Origin: Planococcus maitriensis
Lineage (GTDB): Bacteria > Bacillota > Bacilli > Bacillales_A > Planococcaceae
Length of the DNA: 32,000 nt
Reading direction: 5' to 3'
NCBI RefSeq assembly: GCF_003289925.1
Contig: NZ_QLZQ01000002.1
Location: 51,282-83,281, forward strand
The first letter of the stretch is position 1, and every line of letters begins with the position of its first letter. Of the stretch, positions 10,789 to 30,176 are shown piece by piece. A model generated the notes under the pieces. The model saw only the letters and a program-made list of their open reading frames with translations, made no database searches and was not told the DNA's origin. A program made the translations under genes and the position numbers.

Positions 10789-10832
10789 AATATTTTATTC
10801 CCTACTATATCACTCAGAAAAGGATGTTTTAC

Positions 10833-12092
10833 ATGACGACTAGCACACGGGTCCAACCCGTCAATGAAGTAAACGATCCCGTCTACCGGGACACGATCGC
10901 CTTGAACGCACCGCAGAAATCCTTGATTGTCGGTGGCATCTCGGTGGCGGCATTGTTGACCGTCTATCTATTGGCTACGCAGCATATCGCACAAACCGTG
11001 CTACTTGGCATCGGGCTGTTACTGGGCTATACCTTATTCCATGCACGGTTCGGCTTTACGTCCGCGTTCCGCCGCTTCATGTCGGTCGGAAACGGACAGG
11101 CGATGCGCTCGCATATGCTCATGTTGGCGGTGGCCGTGACCTTGTTCGCGCCGATTCTGGCGTATGGCTATTCGTTCTTTGGCACCGAAGTGTCAGGCTA
11201 TGTTTCCCCGGTCGGCGTGAGCCTGGTCGTCGGGGCGTTCATCTTCGGCATCGGCATGCAGCTCGGCGGCGGCTGCGCTTCCGGTACGCTGTATGCAATC
11301 GGCGGGGGGCGTTCGGTCATGTTCATCACGCTATTGTTCTTCATTATCGGAACGACGATCGGCGCATATCATCTGCCGTTTTGGACAGAAGATTTGCCGG
11401 CTTTTGAACCGGTGTCACTGGCAACGTCTACAGGGCTTGGCTACGGCGGCGCATGGCTCGTGTCAATTGCGTTGTTTGGGCTCGTTGCCTGGATTACCTT
11501 GATCATCGAGAAAAAGAAACGCGCACCGAAAATGGCGCCGCTTCCGACCACGACGGGATGGCAACGCATTTTCCGCGGGTCATGGCCGTTGTTTGCCGCA
11601 GCGATCGCACTTGCTGTGTTGAACGCGTTAACCTTGCTGACACGTGGAACGCCTTGGGGCATCACCTCCGCATTCGCGTTATGGGGCTCGAAAATCGCTG
11701 AATTCTTCGGCGTGGACGTCGCGAGCTGGGGCTACTGGGAAGGGGCAAACGCAGCGATGCTCGAATCGTCGATTTTCGCTGATTCCACCACGGTGTTGAA
11801 CTTCGGGGTCATCCTGGGCGCCTTTCTCGCTTCAGCAGCGGGCGGTTTGTTCAAGTTCACCAAAATCACGATGGGGAATTTCTGGGCATCCATTGTCGGC
11901 GGCTTGCTGATGGGCTACGGGGCCCGCCTTGCGTTCGGCTGCAACATCGGGGCCTATTTCGGCGGCATCGCTTCATTTAGCTTGCACGGTTACATCTGGG
12001 GCATTCTGGCACTCGCCGGTACGTTCTTCGCTCTGTACTTGCGGCCTTTGTTCGGCCTGTCTGTCCCGAAATCCAACGATTCGGTGTGCTGA
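10833..12092 (+). CDS. YeeE/YedE-family inner-membrane sulfur (thiosulfate-type) transporter
   Basis: Polytopic membrane protein with the two family-typical Cys motifs GGGCASGTLY and FGCNIGAYFGG. The second ATG (10833) is preferred because SD AAAGGA abuts the first ATG (10824). Confidence 0.8.
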   Translation: MTTSTRVQPVNEVNDPVYRDTIALNAPQKSLIVGGISVAALLTVYLLATQHIAQTVLLGIGLLLGYTLFHARFGFTSAFRRFMSVGNGQAMRSHMLMLAVAVTLFAPILAYGYSFFGTEVSGYVSPVGVSLVVGAFIFGIGMQLGGGCASGTLYAIGGGRSVMFITLLFFIIGTTIGAYHLPFWTEDLPAFEPVSLATSTGLGYGGAWLVSIALFGLVAWITLIIEKKKRAPKMAPLPTTTGWQRIFRGSWPLFAAAIALAVLNALTLLTRGTPWGITSAFALWGSKIAEFFGVDVASWGYWEGANAAMLESSIFADSTTVLNFGVILGAFLASAAGGLFKFTKITMGNFWASIVGGLLMGYGARLAFGCNIGAYFGGIASFSLHGYIWGILALAGTFFALYLRPLFGLSVPKSNDSVC

Positions 12093-12140: not shown

Positions 12141-12157
12141 GTTTGGCCGCTGACCGG

Positions 12158-13540
12158 CTAAATTCCGATCGGTACTGCCTGCTTGACGAAGCGGTGGCCC
12201 GGATGTGCCGGGTTCAGCCGGTCCCCTTTTTGGAACAAGTTGTCACGCAATGTCGCCCCTTTGTATTCGGCCTGCACAAGCCCCCGCTCCTGCAGAATCG
12301 GCACCACCAATTCGATGAAGTCGCGGAAGGTGCCCGGGGTGACGGCATAGGCGATATTGAAGCCATCCACGCCAGCTTCCGATACCCAGCGTTCGAGCTC
12401 ATCTGCCACTTGTTCAGGGGACCCGACCGTTACCGGTCCAAGGCCACCGACGCCGACAAAATCCCGGATGTCCTGGACGGTCGGCTGTTTGCCGGGAATG
12501 ATTTTCGTGAAATTCTCTAACGCCGACTGGATGGCGTCATTTTCGATATACTCGAGCTTTTGGTCCGGGGCGTAGCTCGATAAATCGATGCCTGTCCAGC
12601 CGCCAAACAAGGCCAGGGCGCCTTCATGGCTGATGTGCTTTTTGTATTCTTCGTATTTCGCCTGGGCTTGTTCCGCCGTGGGCGCGACGATCGGCGTGAT
12701 CAAGGTCAAAACGAGTACATCCTCGGGCGCCCGGCCTGCATTGATTGCCGAATGGCGGATGTTGTCGACCGAGCGTTTGGCGATTTCAATAGTGGGTGCG
12801 CCGATAAAGACGCATTCGGCATGCTTCCCGGCAAAGGCAGCTCCTTTTTTCGAAGCGCCGGCCTGGAACAAGACGGGCGTGCGCTGCGGCGACGGTTCGG
12901 ATAAATGTGCGCCCGGCACTTGGAAGTATGTCCCCTTGTGCTCGATGTCGTGAACTTTAGCGGGATCTGCGTAAATGCCCGTTTCTTTATCCACGATGAC
13001 CGCATCGTCTTCCCAACTGCCTTCCCAGAGCTTATAGCACACGTCCGCATATTCATCGGCGATGTCATAGCGTACGTCGTGCTTCACTTGTTCGGCGCCG
13101 ATATTCTCCGCGGCGCTTTTCAGGTAGGAGGTGACGATGTTCCAGCCGACACGCCCGTCCGTCAAGTGATCGAGCGTCGACATGCGCCGGGCGAACGTGT
13201 AAGGATGTTCATGCGTCGTCGAGGCGGTGACCCCGAAGCCGAGATGCTTGGTGACGGCGGACATCAATGGCACGACAAGAGCCGGGTCATTGACGGGGGA
13301 CTGGGCGCCTTGGCGCACGGCTGCATCCCTCGAGCCCTGGTAGACATCATACGTGCCGAGTACATCGGCGAGAAACAAGGCATCGAATTTGCCTCGTTCC
13401 AATAATTGTGCGAGTTCAATCCAGTACCGGCTCCCTTTGTATTCGTGCGAGCGGTCTTCCGGGTGTGTCCAAAGCCCGGGCGACTGGTGCCCTGCGCAGT
13501 TCATGTCAAAAGCATTCAAAACGATCCGTTTGTTCGTCAT
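12158..13540 (-). CDS. LLM-class FMNH2-dependent monooxygenase, NtaA/SnaA/DszA (YxeK/YtnJ-like) family
   Basis: About 460 aa. It reads IVLNAFDMNCAGHQSPGLWTHPED...FDALFLADVLG...RRMSTLDHLTDGRVGWNIVTS...YKLWEGSWEDDAV...SPQRTPVLFQAGAS...HAECVF. The start is placed at the second ATG (13540) because SD AGGAGGA abuts the first (13546). Confidence 0.85.
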   Translation of the reverse strand: MTNKRIVLNAFDMNCAGHQSPGLWTHPEDRSHEYKGSRYWIELAQLLERGKFDALFLADVLGTYDVYQGSRDAAVRQGAQSPVNDPALVVPLMSAVTKHLGFGVTASTTHEHPYTFARRMSTLDHLTDGRVGWNIVTSYLKSAAENIGAEQVKHDVRYDIADEYADVCYKLWEGSWEDDAVIVDKETGIYADPAKVHDIEHKGTYFQVPGAHLSEPSPQRTPVLFQAGASKKGAAFAGKHAECVFIGAPTIEIAKRSVDNIRHSAINAGRAPEDVLVLTLITPIVAPTAEQAQAKYEEYKKHISHEGALALFGGWTGIDLSSYAPDQKLEYIENDAIQSALENFTKIIPGKQPTVQDIRDFVGVGGLGPVTVGSPEQVADELERWVSEAGVDGFNIAYAVTPGTFRDFIELVVPILQERGLVQAEYKGATLRDNLFQKGDRLNPAHPGHRFVKQAVPIGI

Positions 13541-13562
13541 CGTCATTCCTCCTTTTTGTGGG

Positions 13563-14096
13563 TTACAGCAGGACTTTCCGTGAAGCGATGGCCGCAGTCA
13601 GTTCCGACAGCTGCCGATCGAGCCGGGCAGAGAGTTCTTCGTCTGTGATCGGGGCATGGGGCTGTGTTTTATCGATTTTGTCGTCGATGATATAAACGCC
13701 TTGCAAGGTTTGCCCTTTCAAGGCCGCGAGCAGCGGCTTGAAGGAATATTCAAGGGCGAGCAAATGATTGGCGCTGCCGCCGGTCATCAGCGGCAGCACC
13801 GGCTTGTCACGGAAGGCATCGCTCGGCAGCAAGTCCAGCAAGGCTTTCAACACCCCGCTGTAGGCTGCTTTGTATACCGGCGAAGCGATGATGATGCCAT
13901 CCGCTTCTTGGATTTGGCGCTGGATGTGCTGGATTTCCGTACTGTTGAAATTGGCACCCGCCAAGTCCGCAGCCGGCACGTCCTGGACGGATACGTAGGC
14001 GGTGTCATGGGACAGGCGATTTCCGGCGGCGCGCAAGACGAGGTCTGACCTTGAATGGGCCGAAGGGCTTCCAGATATCAATAGGATGTTGCTCAT
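13563..14096 (-). CDS. ssuE: NAD(P)H-dependent FMN reductase (SsuE-like)
   Basis: ILLISGSPSAHSRS...ASPVYKAAYSGVLKALLDLLP...LPLMTGGSANHLLALEY closely follows the SsuE pattern. SD AAGGAGAG favours the ATG at 14096 over 14102. Confidence 0.8.
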   Translation of the reverse strand: MSNILLISGSPSAHSRSDLVLRAAGNRLSHDTAYVSVQDVPAADLAGANFNSTEIQHIQRQIQEADGIIIASPVYKAAYSGVLKALLDLLPSDAFRDKPVLPLMTGGSANHLLALEYSFKPLLAALKGQTLQGVYIIDDKIDKTQPHAPITDEELSARLDRQLSELTAAIASRKVLL

Positions 14097-14163
14097 GTTC
14101 ATCTCTCCTTATAGAGGCTTGAATGATGGTTCCGGTGAATGGTTCTTTAGTAAATCCATTTTT

Positions 14164-15915
14164 TTACTTGGGAATGGCCGTAGACAAAGCCGAGTCGCTG
14201 GCGTTTATGACGGGTTCTTCATCGGCATTCCATGTTTTCAGCTGGCGCCGCAAAATTTTGCCGCTGATTTTCGTTTTCGGCAACTCGGCAAGCACTTCAA
14301 TCTCACGGGGGGCTGCATGGGCCGATAGCTGCGAACGGACAAACAGCCGGATCTCTTGAAGCAGCTCAGGGGTATTCTGATATCCGGGCTTTAGCACGAT
14401 GAACGCCTTGACGATCTCACCGCGCAGCGGATCCGGTTTGCCGACGACACCTGCTTCTGCGACCGCCCCGTGTTCCAATAGTTTGCTTTCCACTTCAAAC
14501 GGCCCGATGCGTTCGCCGGAGGAATTGATCATGTCGTCGCTGCGCCCCTGGAAAAAGACGTAACCATCGGCGTCCTGATAGGCGAGATCTCCCGACAGAT
14601 ACCAGCCGTCGAACTGGAAATAGGACCGGTATTTCTCTTCGTTTTGCCACACTTCGCGCATCAGTCCTGGCCACGGGGCGCGGATCGCCAAATGGCCGAT
14701 GTCGCCTGGCGCCTGTTCGATTCCGTCATCATCGAGAATGCGGATGTCGATGCCCGGGAATGGCCGGCCCATCGACCCCGGCTTAATCGGTTCGGACGGC
14801 AAATTGACGATGAGCTGTGCGCCTGTTTCCGTCATCCACCACGTGTCGTGGATGCGCAGGCCGAGCTGTTCGACGCCCCAATAGATCACTTCTGGATTCA
14901 ATGGCTCCCCGACACTGAGCACATGGCGCAGCGTACTGAGGTCGTATCGTCCCACCAGTTCATCCCCTGCCGCTTTTAACATGCGAAATGCGGTCGGGGC
15001 GCTGTACCATACCGTGACACCCGCTTTTTCTATCGCTGCATACCAGGAGTCGGCGTCAAAGCGCCCGCCGTTCACGACGATGGTCGCGCGGTTCAGCCAT
15101 GGCGCGAAAATGGCGTAGACGGTACCCGTCACCCAGCCTGGATGCGCCGTGCACCAATAGATGTCGTCGTCCTTGATGTCCAAGACCCAATGGCCGGTTT
15201 GATACTGATGGATCATCGCCCGGTGTGCATGGACGATTCCTTTTGGCTTGCCGGTGGACCCGCTCGTGTAATGGATATTGAGCGGGGCGTCCAAGTCCAC
15301 CCATTCGGTCGGCGACCCGGAAACGAAGGTATCCGCCAAGATATCGGTCCAGGAAATTTCATTGTCCCGGCATGATTCCGGCCCGGCTGTCACGAATACT
15401 TTCTCGAGAGACGGCAAGTCTTTGCGCGGAACACGCGCAGCAAGGTCTGGATCGGTGATGAGAAAGCGTCCCTTGCAATCATCGATACGGTCACGCACCG
15501 CTTCTTCCATGAATGCTTCAAAGAGCGGCCCGGCGACAGCCCCGATTTTCACTGTTGCGAGCATCGCAATATAGCAATCGGCGTTTTTCGGCAGGAAGAT
15601 GAAAACGATATCGCCCCGCTTGACTCCTTCATTGCGGAAGGCGGTTGCCCAGCGATCGGTCTCCTGTTTCAGCTCGGCGAATGTCCACACCCGCTGATGC
15701 GCGCCCTCAATGTAATGCAGTGCCGGCTTGTGTCCATAGCCATCCTCTACGTGCCGGTCGATGCATTCATGGGCCATGTTGACGCGCTGGGTCTTGCTCC
15801 AGCTGAATTGCCGTTCGGCTTGTTCCCATGAAAACGTGCGGCATGCCTCTTCGTAGTCTGTTAAGTTCGGTGTATTGCCGGCATCCAATGCCGGCGCCAA
15901 TACAGTTTGTCTCAT
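14164..15915 (-). CDS. acsA: AMP-forming acetyl-CoA synthetase-like adenylating enzyme (Bacillus AcsA type)
   Basis: 583 aa with the motifs YTSGSTGKPKG, WWMTETG, YLSGD, GRSDDMINSSGERIGPFEVES and PKTKISGKILRR. It appears collinear with my recollection of B. subtilis AcsA (not alignment-verified). SD AAAGGAGGGG lies 5 nt upstream. Substrate is not established. Confidence 0.8.
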   Translation of the reverse strand: MRQTVLAPALDAGNTPNLTDYEEACRTFSWEQAERQFSWSKTQRVNMAHECIDRHVEDGYGHKPALHYIEGAHQRVWTFAELKQETDRWATAFRNEGVKRGDIVFIFLPKNADCYIAMLATVKIGAVAGPLFEAFMEEAVRDRIDDCKGRFLITDPDLAARVPRKDLPSLEKVFVTAGPESCRDNEISWTDILADTFVSGSPTEWVDLDAPLNIHYTSGSTGKPKGIVHAHRAMIHQYQTGHWVLDIKDDDIYWCTAHPGWVTGTVYAIFAPWLNRATIVVNGGRFDADSWYAAIEKAGVTVWYSAPTAFRMLKAAGDELVGRYDLSTLRHVLSVGEPLNPEVIYWGVEQLGLRIHDTWWMTETGAQLIVNLPSEPIKPGSMGRPFPGIDIRILDDDGIEQAPGDIGHLAIRAPWPGLMREVWQNEEKYRSYFQFDGWYLSGDLAYQDADGYVFFQGRSDDMINSSGERIGPFEVESKLLEHGAVAEAGVVGKPDPLRGEIVKAFIVLKPGYQNTPELLQEIRLFVRSQLSAHAAPREIEVLAELPKTKISGKILRRQLKTWNADEEPVINASDSALSTAIPK

Positions 15916-16562: not shown

Positions 16563-17330
16563 ATGCAGGAAGTCACAGTTTGTTCCATCGCATCGGGCGC
16601 AGCCGCTCCAGCCGCCCAAGCAATGCATCGCCATTCGCTGGCCACCGAGATCTGGTGGGTGAGCGAAGGCTTATTGGACATCGAAGCGGGAACGCAGCGC
16701 ATTGCGCTCCAGCCCGGCGAGTTGCTGTTATTGCCTACAGGCGTCTGGCATCGGCTATGTTCCGAGCCTTCTGTCCCGTGCAGCTGGCATCGAGCGGTCG
16801 TGGCGGTGCCAGACGTTGGTTGCGGGGAAGTTTTCCGGCTGCAACCGAAAAATCCACGCTATATCAGCTCGCTTTTCATGGAACTGGAGCGGCTGTATCC
16901 GGAAGATCCAGGGAAATCCGCTTTGATCGCCTCACTCTTGCTGAAAGAAGCCGATCAAGTGATGAGACATGTACCGGAAGCGCTCTTTATGGCGCCCCTG
17001 CAGCATGAGCTTGAAGAAACTTGCCATTTGCCGTTTTCATTGGAAGCTGCCGCTCAGTTCGCGGGCATGAGCAAATACCATTTCAGCCGGAAGTTCAAGG
17101 AAGCCTGCGGGCTATCGCCGCTTCAATTCGTTATCCATTGCCGGGTGGCGCGGGCGGAGAAACTGTTGAAAGAAACAAGCCAGCCGCTTTCTTCGATTGC
17201 CTCTGCTTGCGGCTACCATAGCGCGACCCAGTTCCACGCAGTGTTTACCCGGATTATCGGTGAAACGCCGATGCGCTACCGCAAGGCCCATCAAGCGCAC
17301 TTTGGAAACGGAGGGGTTACCATTGAATGA
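16563..17330 (+). CDS. AraC-family transcriptional regulator (N-terminal cupin, C-terminal HTH)
   Basis: Cupin-like LLLPTGVWHRL, and an AraC HTH region AAQFAGMSKYHFSRKFKEACGLSPLQFVIHCRVARAEKLL...ACGYHSATQFHAVFTRIIGETPMRYR. Confidence 0.85.
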   Translation: MQEVTVCSIASGAAAPAAQAMHRHSLATEIWWVSEGLLDIEAGTQRIALQPGELLLLPTGVWHRLCSEPSVPCSWHRAVVAVPDVGCGEVFRLQPKNPRYISSLFMELERLYPEDPGKSALIASLLLKEADQVMRHVPEALFMAPLQHELEETCHLPFSLEAAAQFAGMSKYHFSRKFKEACGLSPLQFVIHCRVARAEKLLKETSQPLSSIASACGYHSATQFHAVFTRIIGETPMRYRKAHQAHFGNGGVTIE

Positions 17331-17871
17331 CTGGACAACCGCTCTCGAATTCCTCATTTTATTGCTCGTGAATATCGCCATCGGGGCCGTCGGGTTCGTG
17401 CCGAGTGTATTCCTCACGCCCGTCAATCTCGACCGCTTCGGTCTGGCGGGGGGAAGCGTCTTGACGTTTTCCGGAGAGATTTTTGGGGCATTGGCCGGAT
17501 TTTGGCTTTACCGCTTCGGGGCTAATCGGATTCCCCTCAAGTTCCGGGAGCATCGCCTGTTCCGCTATTTTAGCTCCTTGACCAGCCGCAATGTCTTTTG
17601 GTCCGTGCTGCTCTGCCGGCTTTTGCCATTCATGCCTTCAGGTCTTATAACAGCCGCGGCAGCCATCACGAAAATTCGGGCGGGTTGGTTCTTTACAGCC
17701 AGCACATTCGGGAAATTGCCCGCAGTGGCTATTGAAATTGCTTTGGTCTTCGGCTTGACGCTATGGCTTTCGCGTCCGGCGCTGTACGGCTTATTGCTTG
17801 CGACGATTGCCGTATTCGCTATTTCGGCTTATTGGCGGAAACGGCGGCCGTTGGCTTTCCGGAAAACATAA
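17323..17871 (+). CDS. VTT-domain (DedA/TVP38-family) membrane protein
   Basis: The TTG start at 17323 is preceded by SD GGAGGGG 6 nt upstream and overlaps the AraC stop by 8 nt. VTT-type motif RLLPFMPSGLITAAAAITKIRAGWFFTASTFGKLP. The track ORF start at 17197 lies inside the AraC gene. Confidence 0.65.
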   Translation: MNDWTTALEFLILLLVNIAIGAVGFVPSVFLTPVNLDRFGLAGGSVLTFSGEIFGALAGFWLYRFGANRIPLKFREHRLFRYFSSLTSRNVFWSVLLCRLLPFMPSGLITAAAAITKIRAGWFFTASTFGKLPAVAIEIALVFGLTLWLSRPALYGLLLATIAVFAISAYWRKRRPLAFRKT

Positions 17872-17905: not shown

Positions 17906-19501
17906 TTAATTGACTTTTTTGCCACCGCCCCAATACATTTCACGCAATTGGAACTTCTGCAATTTACCGGTCGCCGTCTTCGGCAAGGCTTCCACGAAGT
18001 CGACCGATTTCGGTACTTTGAAGCGCGACATGTTCTCACGCGTATAATCAAGGATTTCCTGTTCGGTCACTTCTGCGCCTTTGTGCAAGACGATGATTGC
18101 TTTTGGCACTTCGCCCCATTTCTCGTCCGGAACCGCGATGACCGCAACTTCCGCGATCGCCGGGTGTTTATAGAGCACGCCTTCGATCTCGGTCGAGGAA
18201 ATGTTCTCGCCGCCGGAGATGATCATGTCCTTGATGCGGTCCTGGATTTCGATAAAGCCGTCCGGATGCGTCACCGCAAGGTCGCCTGTATAGAACCAGC
18301 CGTCGCGGATCGCTTCTGCGGTTTTTTCCGGGTCTTTGTAATAACCGGCCATGACGACGTTCCCGCGGGTGATAATTTCCCCCAGTTCCTTGCCGTTCCA
18401 GGCAACTTCTCTTCCATCGTCCTGGTTGACGACTTTCGTTTCGCCGTTGAAGGCCAGTTCGATGCCTTGGCGTGCCTTGATGCTCGCTTGGGCATCGGAA
18501 TCAAGATCGTTGAATTCGTTTTTCCATTCGCAGTACAGGATGAACGGAGACGTCTCGGTCAAGCCGTAGACGTGCATCATATTCAAGCCCAAAATTTCCT
18601 GGGCTTTGGCGATGAGTGCCGCAGCAGGCGGTGCGCCGGCTGTGCCCATTCGGATTTCCGTTTTCAAGTCGATCTCCTTCGCTTTCGGCTCGTTGACGAG
18701 CATATTGACGACCGTCGGCGCGCCGCATAGCGAGGTGATGCCATGGTTTTCGAACAAATCGAGGATGAGCGGCGGATCGACCTTGCGCAAGCACACGTGC
18801 GTCGCGCCAGCCGCTGTGATCGCCCACACCCCGCCCCAGCCGTTCGTATGGAACATCGGCAAGGTATGCAAATAGACATCATCGAACTTGATCTCCAAAT
18901 GATGCAGGAAGTTGGCGCCGTTCAGGTAATTCGTCCGGTGCGTCTGCATGACGCCTTTCGGATTGGAGGTCGTGCCGCTTGTGTAATTAAGCGACAGCAT
19001 CTGGTTTTCATCCAGTTCGACAGCAGGCAATTGCTCCCCTTCTGAAACACTGCCGATGAATTCCTCGTAATCGACGCCTTTAAGGTTCGTCTCATGGCCT
19101 TCTGCCGGCACGATGATGTATTTTTCGATCGGCAAGTCATCTTGGATATCCTCGATGATCTTGGCATACTCTGCATCGACAATCAGCATCTTCGCATCGC
19201 TATGTTTGATGATATAACCCAAGTCTTTGGCGGACAGCCGGTAATTGAGCGGTACGATGACCGCGCCGAGCGGCGTGATGCCGTAAAAGGCTTCAAGCAT
19301 ATAATGTGTATTCGGCAGCATCACTGCGACATGGTCTTTTTCGTTGATGCCTGCATTATGTAAGGCGATCCCCAACTGGTCGGAGCGGCGTGCAAACTCC
19401 TTGTACGTGAAACGCTTGTCCCCGTCGATGACGGCCACTTTCTCCGGGTAATACTTTACCGCGCGTCGTTTCCAGTCCAGCGGTGTCAATGGTACGATCA
19501 T
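17906..19501 (-). CDS. Acyl-CoA synthetase / fatty-acid-CoA ligase (AMP-binding family)
   Basis: 531 aa with YTSGTTSNPKGV, YGLTETS, YTGDL, ISGGENISSTEIE and PKTATGKLQKFQLR. SD GAGAGGGG lies 8 nt upstream. Confidence 0.85.
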   Translation of the reverse strand: MIVPLTPLDWKRRAVKYYPEKVAVIDGDKRFTYKEFARRSDQLGIALHNAGINEKDHVAVMLPNTHYMLEAFYGITPLGAVIVPLNYRLSAKDLGYIIKHSDAKMLIVDAEYAKIIEDIQDDLPIEKYIIVPAEGHETNLKGVDYEEFIGSVSEGEQLPAVELDENQMLSLNYTSGTTSNPKGVMQTHRTNYLNGANFLHHLEIKFDDVYLHTLPMFHTNGWGGVWAITAAGATHVCLRKVDPPLILDLFENHGITSLCGAPTVVNMLVNEPKAKEIDLKTEIRMGTAGAPPAAALIAKAQEILGLNMMHVYGLTETSPFILYCEWKNEFNDLDSDAQASIKARQGIELAFNGETKVVNQDDGREVAWNGKELGEIITRGNVVMAGYYKDPEKTAEAIRDGWFYTGDLAVTHPDGFIEIQDRIKDMIISGGENISSTEIEGVLYKHPAIAEVAVIAVPDEKWGEVPKAIIVLHKGAEVTEQEILDYTRENMSRFKVPKSVDFVEALPKTATGKLQKFQLREMYWGGGKKVN

Positions 19502-19715: not shown

Positions 19716-20270
19716 TTAGTCCCTGGACACCGCGTATTCGCTTTTTAGAATCGCCAAATAATCGACATCTTCGAAGGCTCCATCCATGAAAAATTCCTGT
19801 TTGAAACGGCCTTCGAATACCATGCCCGCCTTCTCCAGCACACGCCGGGATGCGGGGTTGCGTACGAGGCAGCGGCCGAACAACCGATTCAAGCCGTGTT
19901 CGGCGAAAGCTATGTCGATCACTTTGCGGCACGCTTCCGTGGCATAGCCCTGTCCCCATTCTCCGGGATCGATGAAATAGCCGATCTCGCCTGAACGGTG
20001 GGCCTTTGATAGGCTCACCAATCCGCAATTGCCGATATAGCGAGCAGGCTGTTCCTTCGTGAAGACGGCATATTCGAAAGCATGCCCGACCTCAAAGCTT
20101 TTCTGTACATAATCCAGCCAGCCCTCGAGTTGTTTTCTCGGATACGGGTGCGGAATCATTAGCATCGTGTCTGCAATTTCCTGTTTTCGGACCACTTCAT
20201 AAACCCCGTCTGCCATATTCATTCGGTATGGCTTCAACCATAGCCGTTCAGTTTCCGCTATTGTGGGCAT
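19716..20270 (-). CDS. GNAT-family N-acetyltransferase (RimJ/RimL-like)
   Basis: 184 aa. GEIGYFIDPGEWGQGYATEACRKVIDIAF carries the acetyl-CoA-binding Q/RxxGxG/A motif, and NPASRRVLEKAGMVFEG is also present. SD AGGAGGTG upstream. Confidence 0.8.
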   Translation of the reverse strand: MPTIAETERLWLKPYRMNMADGVYEVVRKQEIADTMLMIPHPYPRKQLEGWLDYVQKSFEVGHAFEYAVFTKEQPARYIGNCGLVSLSKAHRSGEIGYFIDPGEWGQGYATEACRKVIDIAFAEHGLNRLFGRCLVRNPASRRVLEKAGMVFEGRFKQEFFMDGAFEDVDYLAILKSEYAVSRD

Positions 20271-20487: not shown

Positions 20488-22914
20488 TTATTCGGTCGCG
20501 GGCATTAGGTAAGCTGCCGTGACGGCGCCGTCTGTCGCTTCGTCCACGATAAACGAACCGTTGGAATAGCGGTCAACCGCTTTCAGGCGGCCTGGCGCAA
20601 TCGGGATGCGCAGGCCTTTCGCCGTTTCGAGCAGGATCTCCTCTTTGCCGGTCGTGCCGATGACGGCCACGACGCGGTGGGGATTGGATTTCAATTCCCG
20701 CAGCATGATGACGCCGCGTTTGGCACGGCTGCCGCTTTCGAATTCCGTCAGTTTCATCTTTTTGGCAGCCCCGCGCTGCGTCGCGAGCACGAGATCTGGC
20801 TGCTGGTTCGGGTCGATCATGACCGCAGACACCGCTTCGTCGCCTTCTTTTAAGTTCAAGCCTTTGACGCCCGCAGTGCGAAGCCCTGTCACCGGCACTT
20901 CGTCGAGCGGGAAGCGAACGCCATATGCCATTTTCGTGGCCAGGAACAATTCGGTTTCACCCGTCGCGAGCCCCGCGAAGATCATGTTATCGCCTTTTTT
21001 CAGGTTCATCGTCTTGATGGCGCGTGAATAGCGCTGCACCTGGTAGTCTTTCAGCGCGGATCGCTTCACTTGGCCGAATTTCGATACAGTGACGATCGAC
21101 GCTTCTTGTTCGAAATCTTCGAATGGGAACACCGCAAGCACCGATTCGTTGGAATCGAGCGTGACGATGCTCGACAAATGCTGGCCGAGGTCTTTCCATT
21201 TGATGTCCGGCAGTTCATTGACGGGCTGGAACACGAAATTCCCGCCGGTCGTGAAGATCAACACGGTATGCTGCGTATTGAGTGTGCCTTCGAACAACAG
21301 GTGGTCGCTGTCTTTCATGGCAAAATCCTTGCCGTTCGAAGCCGCATGGGAGCGGGTGCTCGTCCGTTTGACATAGCCTTCTTTGGTGACGGTGACAATC
21401 ACTTCTTCACTTGGGATCATGATTTCACGCGTAATGGTCAGCTCTTCGATCTTTTCTTCGATTTCAGAACGCCGTGGTTCCGCGAATTTCTTGCGGATCG
21501 CCTGCAATTCCTTCTTGATGACGTTTTTCAATTTCGTCGCGCTCGTCAAGATGCCGGTCAGCTCGGCAATTAATTTGCGCAAGCTTTCCTCTTCTTTCTT
21601 GAGTTCGGTGATATCGGTATTCGTCAGCCGGTAGAGCTGTAAGGAGACAATCGCTTCTGCCTGCGCTTCCGAAAACTCGAATTTCGCGATCAAATTGTTT
21701 TTCGCGTCGCGTTTGTCTTTTGAAGCGCGGATGGTCTTGATCACTTTATCGAGAATTGACAGGGCTTTAATCAAGCCTTCGACGATGTGCATGCGGTCGC
21801 TTGCTTTTTGCAAGTCGAATTCCGAGCGTTTCGTCACGACTTCTTTTTGGTGCTCAATATAGGCATCAAGCATCGTCGGCAAGGTCATCATCGTCGGGCG
21901 GCGGTGATGGATTGCCACCATATTGAAGTTATAGCTGATTTGCAGGTCGGTATTTTTATACAAATAGTTCAAGATGCCGGCCGCCTGCACTTCTTTTTTC
22001 AACTCGATGACAATGCGGAGGCCCGTGCGGTCGGATTCATCGCGCACTTCAGAAATGCCGTCGAGTTTGCGGTCGAAGCGGTGATCATCGATTTTCTTGA
22101 TGAGGCTCGCTTTGTTCACTTCGAACGGGATTTCCGTAATGACGATCTGTTCCTTGCCGCCTTTTAACGGTTCAATGGCCGCTTTCGAACGGATGACGAT
22201 TTTACCGCGTCCCGTTTCGTACGCCTTTTTGATGCCTTCGACACCTTGGATGATGCCGCCGGTCGGGAAATCGGGTCCTTTAATGACGGTCATCAATTCA
22301 TCGATTGTCGCATCTGGCTTGTCGATGCGCATGAGGACCGCATCGAGTGCTTCATGCAGCGCATGCGGCGGGATGTCGGTCGCATACCCAGCGGAAATCC
22401 CCGTCGATCCGTTGACGAGCAGGTTCGGGAAACGCGCCGGGAGGACGGTGGGTTCGACGTCTACGTCGTCGAAATTCGGAATGAATTCAACGGTGCGTTT
22501 TTCGATGTCTCTTAACAGTTCACCGGAAATCGCGGATAGCCGGGCTTCCGTATAACGCATCGCGGCCGGGGAATCCCCGTCCATCGAGCCGTTATTGCCG
22601 TGCATTTCCACGAGCATGTGGCGGATTTTCCAGTCCTGGCTGAGCCGCACCATCGCTTCGTAAACGGAGCTATCGCCGTGCGGGTGATAGTTCCCGATCA
22701 CGTTCCCGACCGTTTTGGCGGATTTCCGGAACGCTTTGTCGTTAGTATTGCCTTCGTGGTGCATGGCATAAAGAATGCGGCGCTGTACCGGCTTGAGCCC
22801 ATCGCGGGCATCCGGCAGCGCACGGTCCTGGATGATGTATTTACTGTAGCGGCCAAACCGATCGCCGATGACTTCTTCTAAGGGCAGATCTTGGAAACGT
22901 TCGGTTTGTGTCAT
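20488..22914 (-). CDS. parC: DNA topoisomerase IV subunit A
   Basis: 808 aa with [18 protein letters not shown] and the active-site region [10 protein letters not shown]. The ATGA overlap with the upstream parE, and the yneT-plsY neighbourhood as in B. subtilis, support ParC rather than GyrA. Confidence 0.9.
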
Positions 22915-24881
22915 ACGAGTTCCTCCTCAGCGTGAATCAAATCATTTTCTAGAATGTTGCTGTCGTCTTCAAGTCCGAAGTCGACATTGCTTTCGATCCA
23001 TTTGCGGCGCGGTTCGACTTTGTCGCCCATCAATGTCGTGATGCGGCGTTCGGCGCGCGCCCCGTCTTCGATCGTGACGCGGATCAAGGTGCGCGATTCC
23101 GGGTTCATCGTCGTTTCCCACAATTGGTCGGCGTTCATTTCCCCGAGGCCTTTATAGCGCTGGAGCATGTAGCCTTTGCCGATTTTCTTGATCGACTCGT
23201 CGAGATCCGCTTCGGTCCAGGCGTAATCGACGACTTCCTTTTTGCCGACGCCTTTGGACACTTTATAGAGCGGAGGCAAGGCGATGAACACTTTGCCCGC
23301 TTCGATGAGCGGCTTCATGTAACGGTAGAAGAACGTCAACAGCAGCACTTGGATATGCGCACCGTCAGTATCGGCATCGGTCATGATGATGACTTTGTTG
23401 TAGGCGATGTCGTCCACGGAGAAGTCGGAAGATACGCCGCCGCCGATCGCATGGATGATGGTGGCGATTTCTTCATTTTTCATTATTTCTTCCAGTTTCG
23501 CTTTTTCGGTATTGACGACTTTCCCGCGCAGCGGCAAGATCGCCTGGAATGTCCGGTCGCGGCCTTGTTTAGCCGAACCGCCGGCCGAGTCGCCCTCGAC
23601 TAGGTACAATTCGTTCTTTTTGGCGTTGCGCGACTGCGCTGGCGTCAATTTTCCGGACAATAAGGTATCGGATTTCTTGCGTTTCTTGCCATTTCGGGCA
23701 TCTTCCCGCGCTTTTCGTGCGGCGAGACGCGCCTGAGACGCCCGTATTGCTTTGCGGACGAGTGATGCACTGTGTTCTGCGTTCTCCTCGAGGAAGTACA
23801 TCAATTGCTGGGAAATGACCGCATCAACGGCACCGCGGGCTTCGCTTGTGCCGAGTTTGCTTTTCGTCTGGCCTTCAAATTGCAGCAAAGCTTCCGGGAT
23901 GCGTACCGAGACGATGGCCGCCAAGCCTTCGCGGATGTCGGAGCCCTCTAGGTTTTTGTCTTTATCTTTCAATAAATTGATTTTGCGTGCGTAATCGTTG
24001 AATACGCGGGTCATGGCCGCTTTCGCGCCGGTTTCGTGCGTCCCGCCGTCGCGTGTGCGGACGTTGTTGACGAACGACAGGATCGTTTCGGAATAGCCGT
24101 CGTTGAACTGGAACGCGAATTCGACTTCGAGGCTGTCACTCTGCCCTTCCATATACGCCACTTTGTGGAGCACGTCTTTTTCTTCGTTCAAGTATTCGAC
24201 GAAGGCTTTGATACCGGTTTCATAAAAGAAGCTCTCACCGGTTTGGCTGCGCTCATCGATCAACTCGATGTTCATGCCTTTCATGAGGAACGCGGATTCA
24301 CGCAAGCGTTCGCTCAGCGTGTCGTAATTGTATTTGGATACGCTGAAGATGCTTTCATCGGGCAGGAAGTGAATCAAGGTGCCTGATTCTTTCGTTTTGC
24401 CGATCTCTTCCAAAGTCGTGACGGGTTTGCCGCCATTTTCAAAACGCTGGCGGTATTTGCGCCCGTCGCGGTGTATCGTCACTTCCAAAAAACTCGACAA
24501 GGCATTGACGACAGATGCGCCGACGCCGTGAAGCCCGCCGCTCGTCTTGTAGCCGCCCTGGCCGAATTTCCCGCCGGCGTGGAGCACTGTCAAAATGACT
24601 TCCGGTGTCGGTTTGCCGCTTCTGTGCATTCCGGTCGGCATGCCGCGGCCATAATCGCGCACGCTGATGCTGTTGTCTTCGTGAATGGTCACCGTTATGC
24701 GGTCGCCATATCCGGCAAGCGCTTCATCGACGGAATTATCGACGATCTCATAGACCAAGTGGTGAAGCCCGCGGGCATCGGTCGAACCGATATACATCCC
24801 TGGGCGTTTGCGTACCGCATCCAGCCCTTCTAGAACTTGGATCGCTTCTTCGTTATATGCATTGCTGTTCGTTTTAGCCAT
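22911..24881 (-). CDS. parE: DNA topoisomerase IV subunit B
   Basis: 656 aa. GHKL ATPase motifs [10 protein letters not shown] and [13 protein letters not shown], plus TOPRIM motifs [16 protein letters not shown] and [20 protein letters not shown] upstream. Confidence 0.9.
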
Positions 24882-25541: not shown

Positions 25542-26132
25542 ATGGACATTTTGCTTCCGGTAATTATCGCTTATTTACTCGGATCCATCCCTTCAGCATT
25601 ATGGATCGGAAAACTTTTCTACAATACCGACATCCGGACTAAGGGCAGCGGCAATTTAGGGGCGACCAACACATTCCGCGTGCTGGGCCCGAAAGCCGGA
25701 TTTATCGTCACCGTCCTGGATATTCTAAAAGGCACGGCTGCGACACTGCTGCCGCTTGTCATGGCCACCGATGTCCACCCGCTTATCCTGGGTGTTATTG
25801 CGGTCATTGGCCATATGTTTCCGGTGTTTGCCCGTTTTAAAGGCGGCAAGGCCGTTGCTACTTCCGGCGGGATCCTGCTTGGCTATCAGTGGCCGTTGTT
25901 TTTACTCGCCGTAGCCGTTTTATTGATTGCGTTGAAGATCACGAAAATGGTCTCGTTGTCTTCCATCATTTTAGCGGTCGTGTCGGTCATCTATACGGTC
26001 ATTTACACCATCAATACCGGCGATTACTTGTTTTTTGCCGTGATCTTAACACTCGCCACGTTCATCATTTACCGGCATCGCGCGAACATTGCGCGCATCC
26101 GCGCAGGCACCGAACCGAAGATCAAGTGGTAG
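25542..26132 (+). CDS. plsY: Glycerol-3-phosphate acyltransferase PlsY
   Basis: 196 aa. [13 protein letters not shown]...[15 protein letters not shown]...[28 protein letters not shown] upstream. Confidence 0.92.
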
Positions 26133-27461: not shown

Positions 27462-30176
27462 TTATGCTTCTAGCAATTTGTTGCGGAGCACCATTTGCAG
27501 GATGCCGCCGTGACGGAAGTAGTCGACTTCCACTTCTGAATCGAAGCGTGCGAGGACTTGGAATTCCGTTACTTTGCCATCTTCAGCAGTTGCTGTGACA
27601 GTCAGTACGTCGCGCGGTTTCACGTCGTCAGACAAGTTGACGCTGATTGTTTCGTGGCCTGTAAGACCAAGTGATTCAGCGTTTTCGCCGTTAACGAATT
27701 GAAGCGGCAAGACGCCCATCATGACAAGGTTTGAACGGTGAATACGCTCATAGCTTTCCGCGATGACTGTTTTGACGCCAAGAAGGAATGTTCCTTTGGC
27801 AGCCCAGTCACGGGAAGAGCCCATGCCGTAGTCTTTACCGGCTAGAACCACGAGGCCAGTGCCTTGCTCTTGGTACTTCATGCATGCATCGTAGATTGGC
27901 ATAACTTCGCCAGTCGGCCAGAATGTCGTGAAGCCGCCAGTTGTGCCTGGTGCGACTTGGTTACGGATACGGATGTTCGCAAACGTACCACGCATCATGA
28001 CTTCGTGGTTTCCGCGGCGGGAACCGTAGGAGTTGAAGTTGCGCGGCTCAACGCCGTGTTCACGCAAGTACAATCCAGCAGGTGTGTCTTTTCCGATCGC
28101 GCCAGCCGGTGAAATGTGGTCAGTCGTGATCGAATCAGCAAATTTCGCCATGACGCGTAGGCCTGAAAGCGGCTGGATCGGTGCCGGTTCTTTTGAAAGG
28201 CCAGTGAAGAATGGCGGGTTTTGGATATAAGTCGAAGATTCGTCAAATGCGTACAATGAATCGTCGTTTGTTTCGATTGCGTTCCAAGCATCGTTTTCTG
28301 TGAAGACGTGCTCGTATTCTTTACGGAACAATTCAGGCGTTACTGTGTTGTGTACGACATCTTTTACTTCTTCAGTAGAAGGCCAGATATCTTTGAAGAA
28401 CACATCGTTGCCGTCTTTGTCCTGGCCGATCGGGTCTGTTGCGAAGTCGATATCCACTGTTCCTGCAAGTGCATAAGCTACAACGAGCATCGGGGATGCC
28501 AAGTAGTTTGCTTTTACCAATGGGTGGATACGCCCTTCAAAGTTACGGTTACCGGACAATACTGAAGAAACGAGCAAGTCGTTTTCAACGATCGCTTCTT
28601 CGATTTCCGGAAGAAGCGGGCCGGAGTTACCGATACATGTTGTACAGCCATAACCGACCAAGTTGAAGCCGATTTGGTTCATGTAGTCAAGAAGGCCGGA
28701 ATCGTTCAAATAGCCAGTAACGACTTTTGAACCTGGAGCCAATGACGTTTTCACGTATGGCGGAGGCGTCAAGCCTAATTCAACAGCTTTTTTCGCAACT
28801 AGGCCAGCCCCGAGCATAACGTACGGGTTTGACGTGTTTGTGCAAGATGTAATGGCAGCAATCGCCAAAGCGCCTGTTTTCATTTCAGCAGTCTTGCCGT
28901 CATTGAATTTAACAGTTGCTGTTTTGTTGATTTCATTCTCATCCAACGCGAAACCGTGTGGTCCTTCAGCAGCCGTGATTGCAGTGTTGAACTCTTTCTT
29001 CATTTGAGAAAGCGGAATCAAATCCTGCGGGCGTTTAGGGCCGGATAGGTTCGGTTCGATTGTCGACAAGTCGATTTCCACAAGGTCTGTATAGATTGGA
29101 TCTTCGTTGTCGACAGTGAAGAACATGTCATTCGCTTTCAAGTATTCTTTTGTGATCGCGATTTGCTCTTCAGTACGCGCTGTTAGACGCATGTAAGTAA
29201 GTGCTTCTTCGTCTACCGGGAAGAAACCGCAAGTTGCGCCGTATTCAGGTGCCATGTTGGCAATTGTCGCGCGGTCAGCAAGCGGCAATGTTGTAACGCC
29301 AGGCCCGAAGAACTCGACGAATTTGCCGACTACGCCTTTTTTACGCAATGTTTCAGTGACTTTAAGCGCCAAATCCGTCGCAGTTGCGCCGTTTGGCAGT
29401 TCGCCAGTCATTTTCACGCCGATAACTTCAGGAATCGGGAAGTATGAAGGTTGGCCGAGCATGCCCGCTTCCGCTTCGATACCGCCGACGCCCCAACCAA
29501 GAACGCCGATCCCGTTGATCATGGTCGTGTGGGAGTCTGTACCGACGAGCGTATCCGGGAAGGCTTCGAATGTGCCATCTTCGTTTGGTACAGCGTGGAC
29601 AACATTCGCCAAGTACTCAAGGTTTACTTGGTGGACGATACCAGTAGCTGGTGGAACCGCACGGTAGTTGTCGTAAGCTTTTTGAGCCCAGTTCAAGAAC
29701 TGGTAACGCTCTGCGTTGCGTTCAAACTCAAGCTCCATGTTCGCGCGCAGTGCATCTTCAGTGCCGTAACGGTCAACTTGCACCGAGTGGTCAATGACCA
29801 AGTCAACCGGGATTTCCGGGTTGATCTTGTCCGGGTCGCCGCCCATTTCAGCCATTGCTGAACGAAGTGCTGCCAAGTCAACGACAACCGGTACGCCGGT
29901 GAAATCTTGAAGGATGACACGTGAAGGTTTGAATGGAACTTCCGCTTCTTTGTTCGCGTCTTTGCCCCATTTTGCTAGTTCTTCTACATGTTCGTCTTTG
30001 ATGACATATCCGTCGTGCTGGCGCAATACGGATTCCAATAGTACTTTTACAGAGTACGGAAGGCGAGATACTTTCGCGATCCCCGCTTCTTCGAGTGCTG
30101 CGAGACGATAATAGTTATACGTCTTGCCGTTTAGCTCGAACGATGTGCGGCTGTTGTGCAAACTGCTCTTTGCCAT
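27462..30176 (-). CDS. citB: Aconitate hydratase (aconitase A / CitB)
   Basis: 904 aa. It has VGTDSHTTM and the Fe-S ligand motifs [10 protein letters not shown] and [14 protein letters not shown], plus [21 protein letters not shown] lies 7 nt upstream. Confidence 0.95.

Follow-up and report, generated by a model that had tools for sequence, protein, structure and literature searches.

The window (the whole 32,000-nt stretch of a Planococcus maitriensis contig analysed here; coordinates are positions in it, on the minus strand unless marked) carries a three-gene unit that lies behind two S-adenosylmethionine (SAM) riboswitches of the S-box class. In order, the genes encode an AMP-forming acetyl-coenzyme A (acetyl-CoA) synthetase paralog, hereafter the ligase, an SsuE-type flavin mononucleotide (FMN) reductase and an FMNH2-dependent monooxygenase (Table 1). 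A first-pass annotation of this DNA had named tandem S-boxes followed by an AcsA-like ligase, an SsuE-like reductase and an NtaA/SnaA/DszA-family monooxygenase; family models bear out this gene order, and both S-boxes are full SAM-I aptamers, each with its own terminator.

The leader has a single sigma-A-type promoter site in its upstream region. Both aptamers exceed the Rfam gathering score for RF00162 (44.4 bits) with a full four-way junction, and a hairpin with its U-run comes after each of them, ahead of the ligase gene, as in an expression platform. None of 200 shuffled sequences folded as well as the terminator of riboswitch 1. The terminator of riboswitch 2 is weak against its shuffles (z = -0.97 only) because the segment is rich in G and C. 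Downstream of this second terminator are the ribosome-binding site AAAGGAGGGG and the ATG at 15915. The co-oriented genes are separated by 61 nt (ligase to ssuE) and 16 nt (ssuE to monooxygenase), in line with the short gaps (61-67 and 16-22 nt) given earlier. The 61-nt gap contains neither an S-box remnant nor a terminator and folds like shuffled controls (z = 0.04), which agrees with the earlier statement that no hairpin terminator separates the genes. The unit ends at a bidirectional intrinsic terminator, at which the converging yeeE gene (the YeeE/YedE-type gene of the first-pass annotation) also ends; no riboswitch was found in front of yeeE. As one part of the fuller model set out below, and with the same evenly balanced confidence, the whole would be a single S-box-controlled transcription unit, shut off at high SAM.

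Table 1. Features of the S-box unit and its surroundings in the window, followed by the arrangements at six loci with monooxygenase orthologs (PLP, pyridoxal phosphate)
Feature	Positions	Strand	Evidence or remarks
Sigma-A-type promoter, TTGACA-17 nt-TAATAT	16354-16326	-	10/12 consensus positions match
SAM-I riboswitch aptamer 1 (S-box)	16281-16171	-	RF00162 88.2 bits, E = 6.6e-20, model 1-108/108
Terminator of riboswitch 1, 11-bp stem then UUUUUUU	16164-16140	-	-15.2 kcal/mol, z = -3.38
SAM-I riboswitch aptamer 2 (S-box)	16088-15980	-	RF00162 87.9 bits, E = 8.2e-20, model 1-108/108
Terminator of riboswitch 2, AUCCCCC...GGGGGAU stem then UUUUU	~15973-15947	-	centroid hairpin -16.9 kcal/mol
S-box-clade AMP-forming acetyl-CoA synthetase paralog (ligase), 583 aa	15915-14164	-	AMP-binding + AMP-binding_C; NF003313
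SsuE-type NAD(P)H-dependent FMN reductase, 179 aa	14102-13563	-	TIGR03567 199.1 bits; PF03358 109 bits
DmoA/LadA-branch FMNH2-dependent monooxygenase, NtaA/DmoA family, 462 aa	13546-12158	-	TIGR03860 568.9 bits
ssuE-monooxygenase segment, present or absent among Planococcus strains	12150-14163	-	2.07-kb indel
Bidirectional intrinsic terminator, 13-bp stem	12138-12109	both	-24.6 kcal/mol, z = -4.29, A-run and U-run on opposite sides
yeeE (Sulf_transp family), converging, ends at same hairpin	10824-12092	+	family match
AraC/cupin regulator	16563-17330	+	
VTT-domain membrane protein	17197-17871	+	
Second, unrelated acyl-CoA synthetase	17906-19501	-	PRK08162-like, 622 bits (cut-off 677); NF005426 355.5 bits, far below cut-off
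GNAT acetyltransferase	19716-20270	-	
parE/parC	20488-24881		
Standalone CoA_binding_2 protein, 165 aa	24999-25496	-	42% identical over 136 aa to the C-terminal domain of the MetY fusion
plsY	25542-26132		
Aconitase	27462-30176		
L084, Planomicrobium chinense			own S-box, lone monooxygenase
L085, Planococcus shenhongbingii			own S-box, lone monooxygenase
L086, Sediminibacillus halophilus			S-box, FMN reductase, monooxygenase, Cys/Met PLP enzyme
L087, Oceanobacillus			S-box, FMN reductase, monooxygenase
L091, Bacillus sp. 1P02SD			S-box, DUF2292, FMN reductase, monooxygenase
L090, B. smithii			no riboswitch

The ligase is identical (100%) to a P. maitriensis protein annotated acetate--CoA ligase. 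It was compared with its 80 best genomic relatives and their 10-kb flanks (best matches, not a random sample; relative loci carry the labels L001-L091, P0267, P0272 and P0327). S-boxes were searched in these loci with a covariance model made from five SAM riboswitches, and Rfam confirmed the matches on three subsets. The loci split into two groups, one S-box-linked and one of housekeeping AcsA. Members of the first are 57-78% identical to the window ligase and come from Planococcus, Sporosarcina, Bhargavaea, Cytobacillus, Metabacillus, Fictibacillus, Lederbergia, Halobacillus, Gracilibacillus, Virgibacillus, Amphibacillus, Evansella, Alteribacter, Alkalicoccus and Salinicoccus; their ligase genes have one to three same-strand SAM riboswitches upstream. 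An upstream S-box is present in 34 of the 36 loci with the clade signature (one of the remaining two was not searched and one has none). The housekeeping group (Paenibacillus, Halalkalibacter, Shouchella, Jeotgalicoccus and others) is 55-60% identical to the window ligase, and none of its 46 acsA loci has a SAM riboswitch. Of the 46 housekeeping loci, 29 have acuA next to acsA, vs. none of the 36 S-box-clade loci, and neither acuA, acuB nor acuC occurs in the window or in those 36 loci. Where it was checked, the divergent trio beside housekeeping acsA consists of GNAT, CBS+ACT and HDAC proteins, i.e., AcuA, AcuB and AcuC; these Pfam domains were used for naming, as the NCBIfam models gave no AcuA or AcuC match.

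In a neighbour-joining tree that has a less closely related ligase as its root, both groups form clades, with the S-box clade recovered in 50/50 bootstraps; mean identity is 65% within the S-box clade and 56% between it and the housekeeping clade. The linkage of the ligase clade to S-boxes is far beyond chance. The two types also occur together: Evansella clarkii DSM 8720 has, on one scaffold of 5,224,402 bp, L028 of the S-box clade together with P0267 and P0327 of the housekeeping type, and Alteribacter natronophilus has, within the same species, one of each (L034 and P0272). The suspicion of the first-pass annotation that the ligase is no ordinary acsA was thus well placed, and the phylogeny and pocket comparison that it had proposed as a check return a monophyletic S-box paralog clade with an unchanged acetate pocket.

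The usual operon of this clade reads [MetY fused to CoA_binding_2]-SsuA-SsuC-SsuB-ligase-[MetX]-[Hom]. MetY scores 661 bits against the O-acetylhomoserine sulfhydrylase model TIGR01326, the binding protein 237 bits against TIGR01728 (SsuA family), and Hom matches NF004976. Genes of 363-372 aa that pass the MetX equivalog NF001209 either come next after the ligase or have an additional S-box of their own a short way upstream. Since the conserved partners are MetX, which uses acetyl-CoA, and MetY, which yields homocysteine with release of acetate, the ligase probably turns the acetate from MetY back into the acetyl-CoA that MetX needs.

Further features of this operon family were recorded on the way. 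The first gene of most S-box-clade operons (e.g., L001:3573-5372) encodes MetY with a C-terminal CoA_binding_2 domain of ~170 aa, and the fusion occurs in L007, L010, L013-L015, L017-L019, L021-L030, L033, L034 and L056; it joins a CoA-binding domain to an acetate-releasing enzyme in an operon with an acetyl-CoA synthetase paralog. The window has a standalone CoA_binding_2 gene among plsY, parE/parC and aconitase; with such neighbours it seems to be a YneT-type housekeeping gene outside the S-box unit. A '45% MetY' match in another Planococcus locus (L004) was discarded, as it covered the CoA-binding domain only. The stacking of SAM riboswitches seems unusually frequent in the family: two stand in series in roughly 17 examined loci (counted from locus maps), and three occupy ~2 kb ahead of metX/metY-ssuABC-ligase in L021 (4914-5438), L028 (2635-4474) and L034 (3638-5338). 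An extra SAM riboswitch directly follows the ligase stop codon in L017 (11800-11904), L018 (11657-11761) and L025 (11849-11961); it precedes an ABC ATPase gene in L025 and, in L017, a 323-aa gene whose product weakly resembles FMN-dependent L-lactate oxidase/dehydrogenase (98 bits, far below the cut-off).

The genes 3' of the ligase vary (L009 11713-15591, L011/L012 11716-12375, L014 11689-14956, L016 6114-6863, L006 11756-12520). Sporosarcina has an AhpD/CMD-family protein at this position, to which L009 adds an SsuE-like reductase and two luciferase-like monooxygenases (LLM); L014 and L016 have an isochorismatase-family hydrolase, followed in L014 by a GAF protein and a 57%-identical monooxygenase; and B. 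timonensis has a TANGO2-family protein. An ssuABC-ligase cluster with the S-box-clade signature is also present in a metagenome-assembled genome labelled Wenzhouxiangella (Gammaproteobacteria; L031, DATGTG010000082.1), where a SAM riboswitch was not found and a binning error or transfer is likely.

Eleven alignment columns discriminate the S-box clade from the housekeeping clade almost perfectly, and the two most telling changes are located where AcsA meets its acetyltransferase. B. subtilis AcsA contacts AcuA via residues 253-264 and via the K549 loop, and residues 253-264 line the active site and become protected once the AcuA C-terminus enters the CoA site (PMC11910552). His258 of the window ligase (Asp255 in B. 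subtilis) is a histidine in 100% of the S-box clade, as against an aspartate in 96% of the housekeeping clade. The A10 loop, which carries the catalytic and acetylated lysine and is the second AcuA contact, has a one-residue insertion (Ile550) in 100% of the S-box clade vs. 0-4% of the housekeeping clade. The loop reads PKTKISGK in place of PKTRSGK, so that the PX4GK acetylation motif (PMC11619455) becomes PX5GK; a test of the window ligase for PX4GK accordingly failed, although the catalytic lysine is present. Cys147, Phe454, Lys110 and Ala288 are further signature residues of the clade. Because the D255H change and the A10 insertion fall at both AcuA contact sites, the S-box-clade ligase would be predicted to escape AcuA binding and acetylation.

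The ligase belongs to the acetate-activating family, as it passes the acetate--CoA ligase equivalog NF003313 by a modest margin (790.8 bits, cut-off 729) and can be aligned over its whole length with B. subtilis AcsA (PDB 9g79; 727 bits over residues 8-564). The pocket motifs CTA(D/H)PGWVTG, LSVGEP and DTWWMTETG are common to both AcsA clades; the window ligase reads CTAHPGWVTG, LSVGEP and DTWWMTETG, with four of four pocket residues unchanged relative to B. subtilis AcsA. Studies of the S. enterica and M. thermautotrophicus Acs enzymes reportedly assign pocket roles to the Val-Thr of WVTG, the Val of SVGEP and the Trp gate of DTWW(M/Q)TETG. As this acetate-sized pocket is retained, acetate is the expected substrate, and the ligase appears to be still acetate-activating.

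The first-pass annotation had instead proposed that the ligase, in the manner of the methylmercaptopropionate-CoA ligase DmdB, activates a larger sulfur-containing carboxylate whose product the monooxygenase then desulfurises, which would make the three genes one pathway. Such a scheme could draw on the co-transcription of the genes, on the replacement of an invariant aspartate by His258 in an active-site-lining segment, and on the SsuABC-type importer that accompanies the ligase clade elsewhere. Against it, however, the Trp gate and the WVTG and SVGEP residues, four acetate-pocket positions in all, are identical to those of B. subtilis AcsA, the 3-(methylthio)propionyl-CoA ligase (DmdB) model NF005426 (cut-off 822 bits) does not appear in the ligase's top 25 NCBIfam matches, and the conserved partners MetY, MetX and Hom do not process CoA esters. 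A DmdB-like role of the ligase was therefore rejected on its unchanged pocket, its family scores and its MetY/MetX/Hom neighbours. The gene arrangement in related strains, given further below, bears on the one-pathway proposal as a whole.

The two remaining genes make up a two-component flavin system. SsuE exceeds the cut-off of TIGR03567 (164.05 bits) and is 51-54% identical to the reductases that precede the monooxygenase orthologs in S. halophilus and Oceanobacillus. The monooxygenase matches TIGR03860 over the full profile (1-422/422), well beyond the cut-off of 279.7 bits. Its best solved relatives are DmoA (6ak1; 540 bits, 53.6% identity over 450 aa) and LadA (3b9n; 513 bits), and more distant ones are DszA (283.8 bits), YtnJ (246.9), MoxC (246.8), NtaA (218) and EmoA (152). 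The analogy to DszA and YxeK drawn in the first-pass annotation was consequently given up, together with that to YtnJ, because DszA, YtnJ and MoxC score far below DmoA and LadA. As read by eye from the alignment, 18 of the 19 DmoA binding residues listed in PMC9259527 are kept (G231 is replaced by K), a list that derives from LadA and cannot separate DmoA from LadA.

Six monooxygenase orthologs (68-81% identity) were sampled, and five of them have their own SAM riboswitch; among these five, an SsuE-type reductase goes with the monooxygenase at three loci and a Cys/Met PLP enzyme at one. The monooxygenase and SsuE are thus a separate S-box module, and DmoA/LadA-like monooxygenases are placed in the methionine regulon. 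An Rrf2-family regulator gene is found ~2.5 kb downstream of the B. smithii monooxygenase, on the opposite strand, and control at that locus may be protein-based. From family and context, SsuE and the monooxygenase are predicted to cleave an organosulfur compound and so supply a sulfur nucleophile for methionine synthesis. It would be remote, by comparison, for the monooxygenase to be a LadA-type long-chain alkane hydroxylase, placed behind the ligase by accident and with no link to sulfur or methionine: the LadA score and the mobility of the pair as an indel would suit such an enzyme, yet control of five of six orthologs, in different genera, by their own SAM riboswitches is hard to square with carbon catabolism, and the S. 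halophilus ortholog is followed by the Cys/Met PLP enzyme.

What the pair cleaves is less evident, and a thioether reading and a sulfite reading of the monooxygenase are comparably likely. In a desulfonating system for sulfonates or sulfones (SsuD/SfnG-like), the pair would release sulfite, to be reduced to sulfide for MetY with no methanethiol involved, while the ligase would still recycle acetate. SsuE is the reductase of the alkanesulfonate system, an importer of the SsuABC family (TIGR01728, 237 bits) usually adjoins the ligase clade, and the RegPrecise authors named the S-box-regulated O. iheyensis gene OB3078, comparable here by description, a 'predicted sulfonate monooxygenase' (PMC3766115 supplement). 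On the other hand, the window monooxygenase failed the SsuD model TIGR03565 (63 bits, cut-off 518.2) and the SfnG model TIGR04021 (69.5 bits, cut-off 382.95), i.e., 63-70 bits against cut-offs of 383-518, and its nearest characterised relatives have a thioether (DmoA) or alkanes (LadA) as their substrates. As a full account of the unit, a desulfonating system is possible, though rather unlikely.

Acetylation-dependent salvage was also considered. In a SnaA/YxeK- or CmoO/CmoJ-like route, the ligase would supply acetyl-CoA for the N-acetylation of S-alkylcysteines, and the monooxygenase would act on the N-acetylated S-conjugate. The LLM family does include YtnJ/CmoJ and MoxC, and a GNAT gene lies ~3.8 kb away (19716-20270); but YtnJ and MoxC reach only 247 bits vs. 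540 for DmoA, no acetyltransferase or deacetylase is found in the operon or beside the sampled orthologs, and the GNAT gene is outside the S-box unit and also present in a Planococcus locus without the pair (L089). This route is very improbable. The second proposal of the first-pass annotation, a genuine AcsA that feeds either O-acetylhomoserine synthesis or acetylation-dependent sulfur salvage, is therefore supported in its former half by the MetY/MetX/Hom neighbours and the unchanged pocket, and loses its latter half, as the operon has no acetyltransferase and YtnJ and MoxC are distant.

The history of the unit can be read from four Planococcus loci, the window included, in which the flanks are constant (acyl-CoA synthetase, VTT and AraC genes on one side, yeeE and EamA on the other). 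In L089 (ligase 87% identical) and L004 (78%), the tandem S-boxes and the ligase are followed directly by yeeE, with no ssuE-monooxygenase pair, whereas in L088 (84%) and in the window the pair stands between the ligase and yeeE. Nucleotide similarity between the window and L089/L004 ends near 14228-14235 and restarts at 12093-12090, while L088 is collinear with the window across the segment (78.5% identity over 2419 nt). Two independent S-box modules have thus recently been fused into this operon, and in the lineage of the window the ssuE-monooxygenase pair uses the riboswitches of the ligase, not its own. Because the pair is an indel and is elsewhere under its own S-box, without the ligase, a three-gene pathway for one substrate is disfavoured; the pattern fits two modules that each serve methionine supply. 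The earlier view of the three genes as one dedicated pathway does not stand up to the finding that L004 and L089 lack the pair at this very locus, and a shared pathway, with the sulfur-carboxylate ligase described above, is improbable. A functional link to yeeE is not supported either, as yeeE is a fixed syntenic neighbour with or without the pair and no riboswitch was found ahead of it.

Several observations concern the flanks themselves. yeeE is 91-96% identical among the Planococcus strains vs. 78-87% for the ligase, whose last ~20 residues diverge; the ligase may be faster-evolving than yeeE, or may have been exchanged. The AraC/cupin regulator, VTT-domain, second (unrelated) acyl-CoA synthetase and GNAT genes are situated next to the S-box promoter, and none of the four is behind a riboswitch. 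The first three are arranged alike in each of the three other Planococcus loci. The GNAT gene was confirmed in L089 only; L004 has an unannotated 202-aa open reading frame (ORF) at its position, and the L088 sequence ends before it.

In the favoured model, the unit is a SAM-repressed assembly of two joined S-box modules, an acetate-recycling AcsA paralog and an organosulfur-cleaving pair; it is held with about even confidence. The RNA elements, protein families, clade structure, gene contexts and indel in it are observed, whereas what the enzymes act on, how the ligase evades AcuA and how the steps connect are inferred. In the classical S-box mechanism, the SAM-bound aptamer favours the terminator. 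With SAM bound, each of the serial riboswitches would form its terminator, and because read-through would require both aptamers to be unliganded, the leader would be expected to show low leak and a steep response. At low SAM, the synthetase, SsuE (as the supply of FMNH2) and the monooxygenase would be made. The synthetase, working without AcuA feedback, would return MetY-released acetate to acetyl-CoA for the O-acetylation of homoserine by MetX. The monooxygenase would cleave the C-S bond of an organosulfur compound, yielding methanethiol if it is DmoA-like or sulfite if its substrate is of the sulfonate or sulfone type. DmoA converts dimethylsulfide to methanethiol and formaldehyde, and enzymes of the MetY type can form methionine directly from methanethiol and O-acetylhomoserine; the acetate freed by the MetY condensation would in turn be a substrate of the ligase. 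Taken to its end, this gives a closed, SAM-controlled route from thioether to methionine, in which a DmoA-like pair feeds methanethiol, freed from dimethylsulfide or another methyl thioether, to MetY and the acetate comes back through an acetylation-exempt AcsA paralog, a version that is doubtful.

A number of points weigh against the favoured model. Metabolically, the SsuABC-type importer that adjoins the ligase elsewhere has no role in pure acetate recycling, and the flux through MetY seems small for a dedicated synthetase. The window contains no metX, metY, hom or ssuABC within its 32,000 nt, so the O-acetylhomoserine route is a presumed one in P. maitriensis; a second, acuABC-linked acsA would likewise be presumed there, the co-occurrence of both types being that of Evansella and Alteribacter. 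His258, in a segment that lines the active site, could alter the handling of substrate or CoA, not AcuA binding. The monooxygenase is about as near to LadA, an alkane hydroxylase, as to DmoA, and the residues compared are common to both. The B. smithii ortholog (67% identity) has a 590-nt upstream gap (1633-2224) without an Rfam match even at E = 0.01. Finally, genes in the relative loci were called by a simple ORF rule, a crude caller applied to a best-match sample.

The unit offers a solid lead, made of parts that are all of known kinds and not amounting to a new three-enzyme pathway. The S-box-regulated acetyl-CoA synthetase clade, which spans Planococcus to Cytobacillus, Halobacillus and Salinicoccus and is a member of a textbook regulon, is currently annotated 'acetate--CoA ligase', a label that hides a paralog with different regulation. 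Its changes coincide with the AcuA-AcsA contacts structurally defined in 2024-2025, which allows a direct test of how acetylation control is switched off. Many LadA/DmoA-like genes of Bacillales are labelled 'long-chain alkane monooxygenase' or generic oxidoreductase, and their SAM control argues for a sulfur/methionine role. Whether Gram-positives connect volatile organosulfur compounds to the making of methionine thereby becomes testable. If the closed route from thioether to methionine is correct, riboswitches of Bacillales would govern a salvage of methionine from volatile sulfur compounds, and these bacteria would also have a naturally 'acetylation-proof' acetyl-CoA synthetase.

The literature touches on this unit only in parts. 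The S-box-regulated acetyl-CoA synthetase clade is widespread and apparently undescribed: the search, which did not cover Rodionov et al., 2004 (NAR), where a mention is possible, returned no paper linking a SAM riboswitch to the control of an acetyl-CoA synthetase gene, the sole co-mention being an unrelated survey of S. aureus small RNAs, and an acsA paralog is absent from the S-box gene lists covered (PMC3766115 supplement). Literature searches for an S-box or SAM riboswitch with a monooxygenase, or for LadA with a riboswitch, gave nothing relevant. SAM control of such an FMN reductase/monooxygenase has been noticed before, but not studied: in the supplement of Sun et al., 2013 (RegPrecise; PMC3766115), the SAM regulon of O. 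iheyensis includes both 'ssuE' and an entry 'OB3078-77, predicted sulfonate monooxygenase'. Like the pair in the window, this entry combines an FMN reductase with an LLM monooxygenase, and the sampled Oceanobacillus locus (L087) has the order S-box, FMN reductase, monooxygenase. Unlike the unit in the window, OB3078-77 is a bare list entry with no ligase, and the two are likened by description only.

Relative to characterised systems, the ligase resembles B. subtilis AcsA (9g79/9g7f) in length class, fold, core motifs, pocket residues and catalytic lysine. It differs in that it belongs to a separate clade, stands behind SAM riboswitches, has lost the PX4GK motif and is not divergent from acuABC, an arrangement that PMC13121692 gives as typical of acsA in Bacilli. 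With the classical S-box regulon of Bacillales (met, mtn, cys), the unit has in common the aptamer family, the terminator platform and induction at low SAM; its cargo, on the other hand, is an acsA paralog, and two or three serial aptamers are common in its operon family. The monooxygenase is most similar to DmoA of Hyphomicrobium sulfonivorans (6ak1), its best solved match, which is likewise a two-component enzyme with a separate FMN reductase. DmoA, however, serves growth of a methylotroph on dimethylsulfide, whereas the gene in the window is SAM-controlled in a Gram-positive heterotroph and is paired with an SsuE-type reductase. LadA of Geobacillus thermodenitrificans (3b9n) is of the same LLM subfamily, at 513 bits, and also from Bacillales; it acts in alkane catabolism, a role from which control by SAM riboswitches and neighbours in sulfur/methionine metabolism point away.

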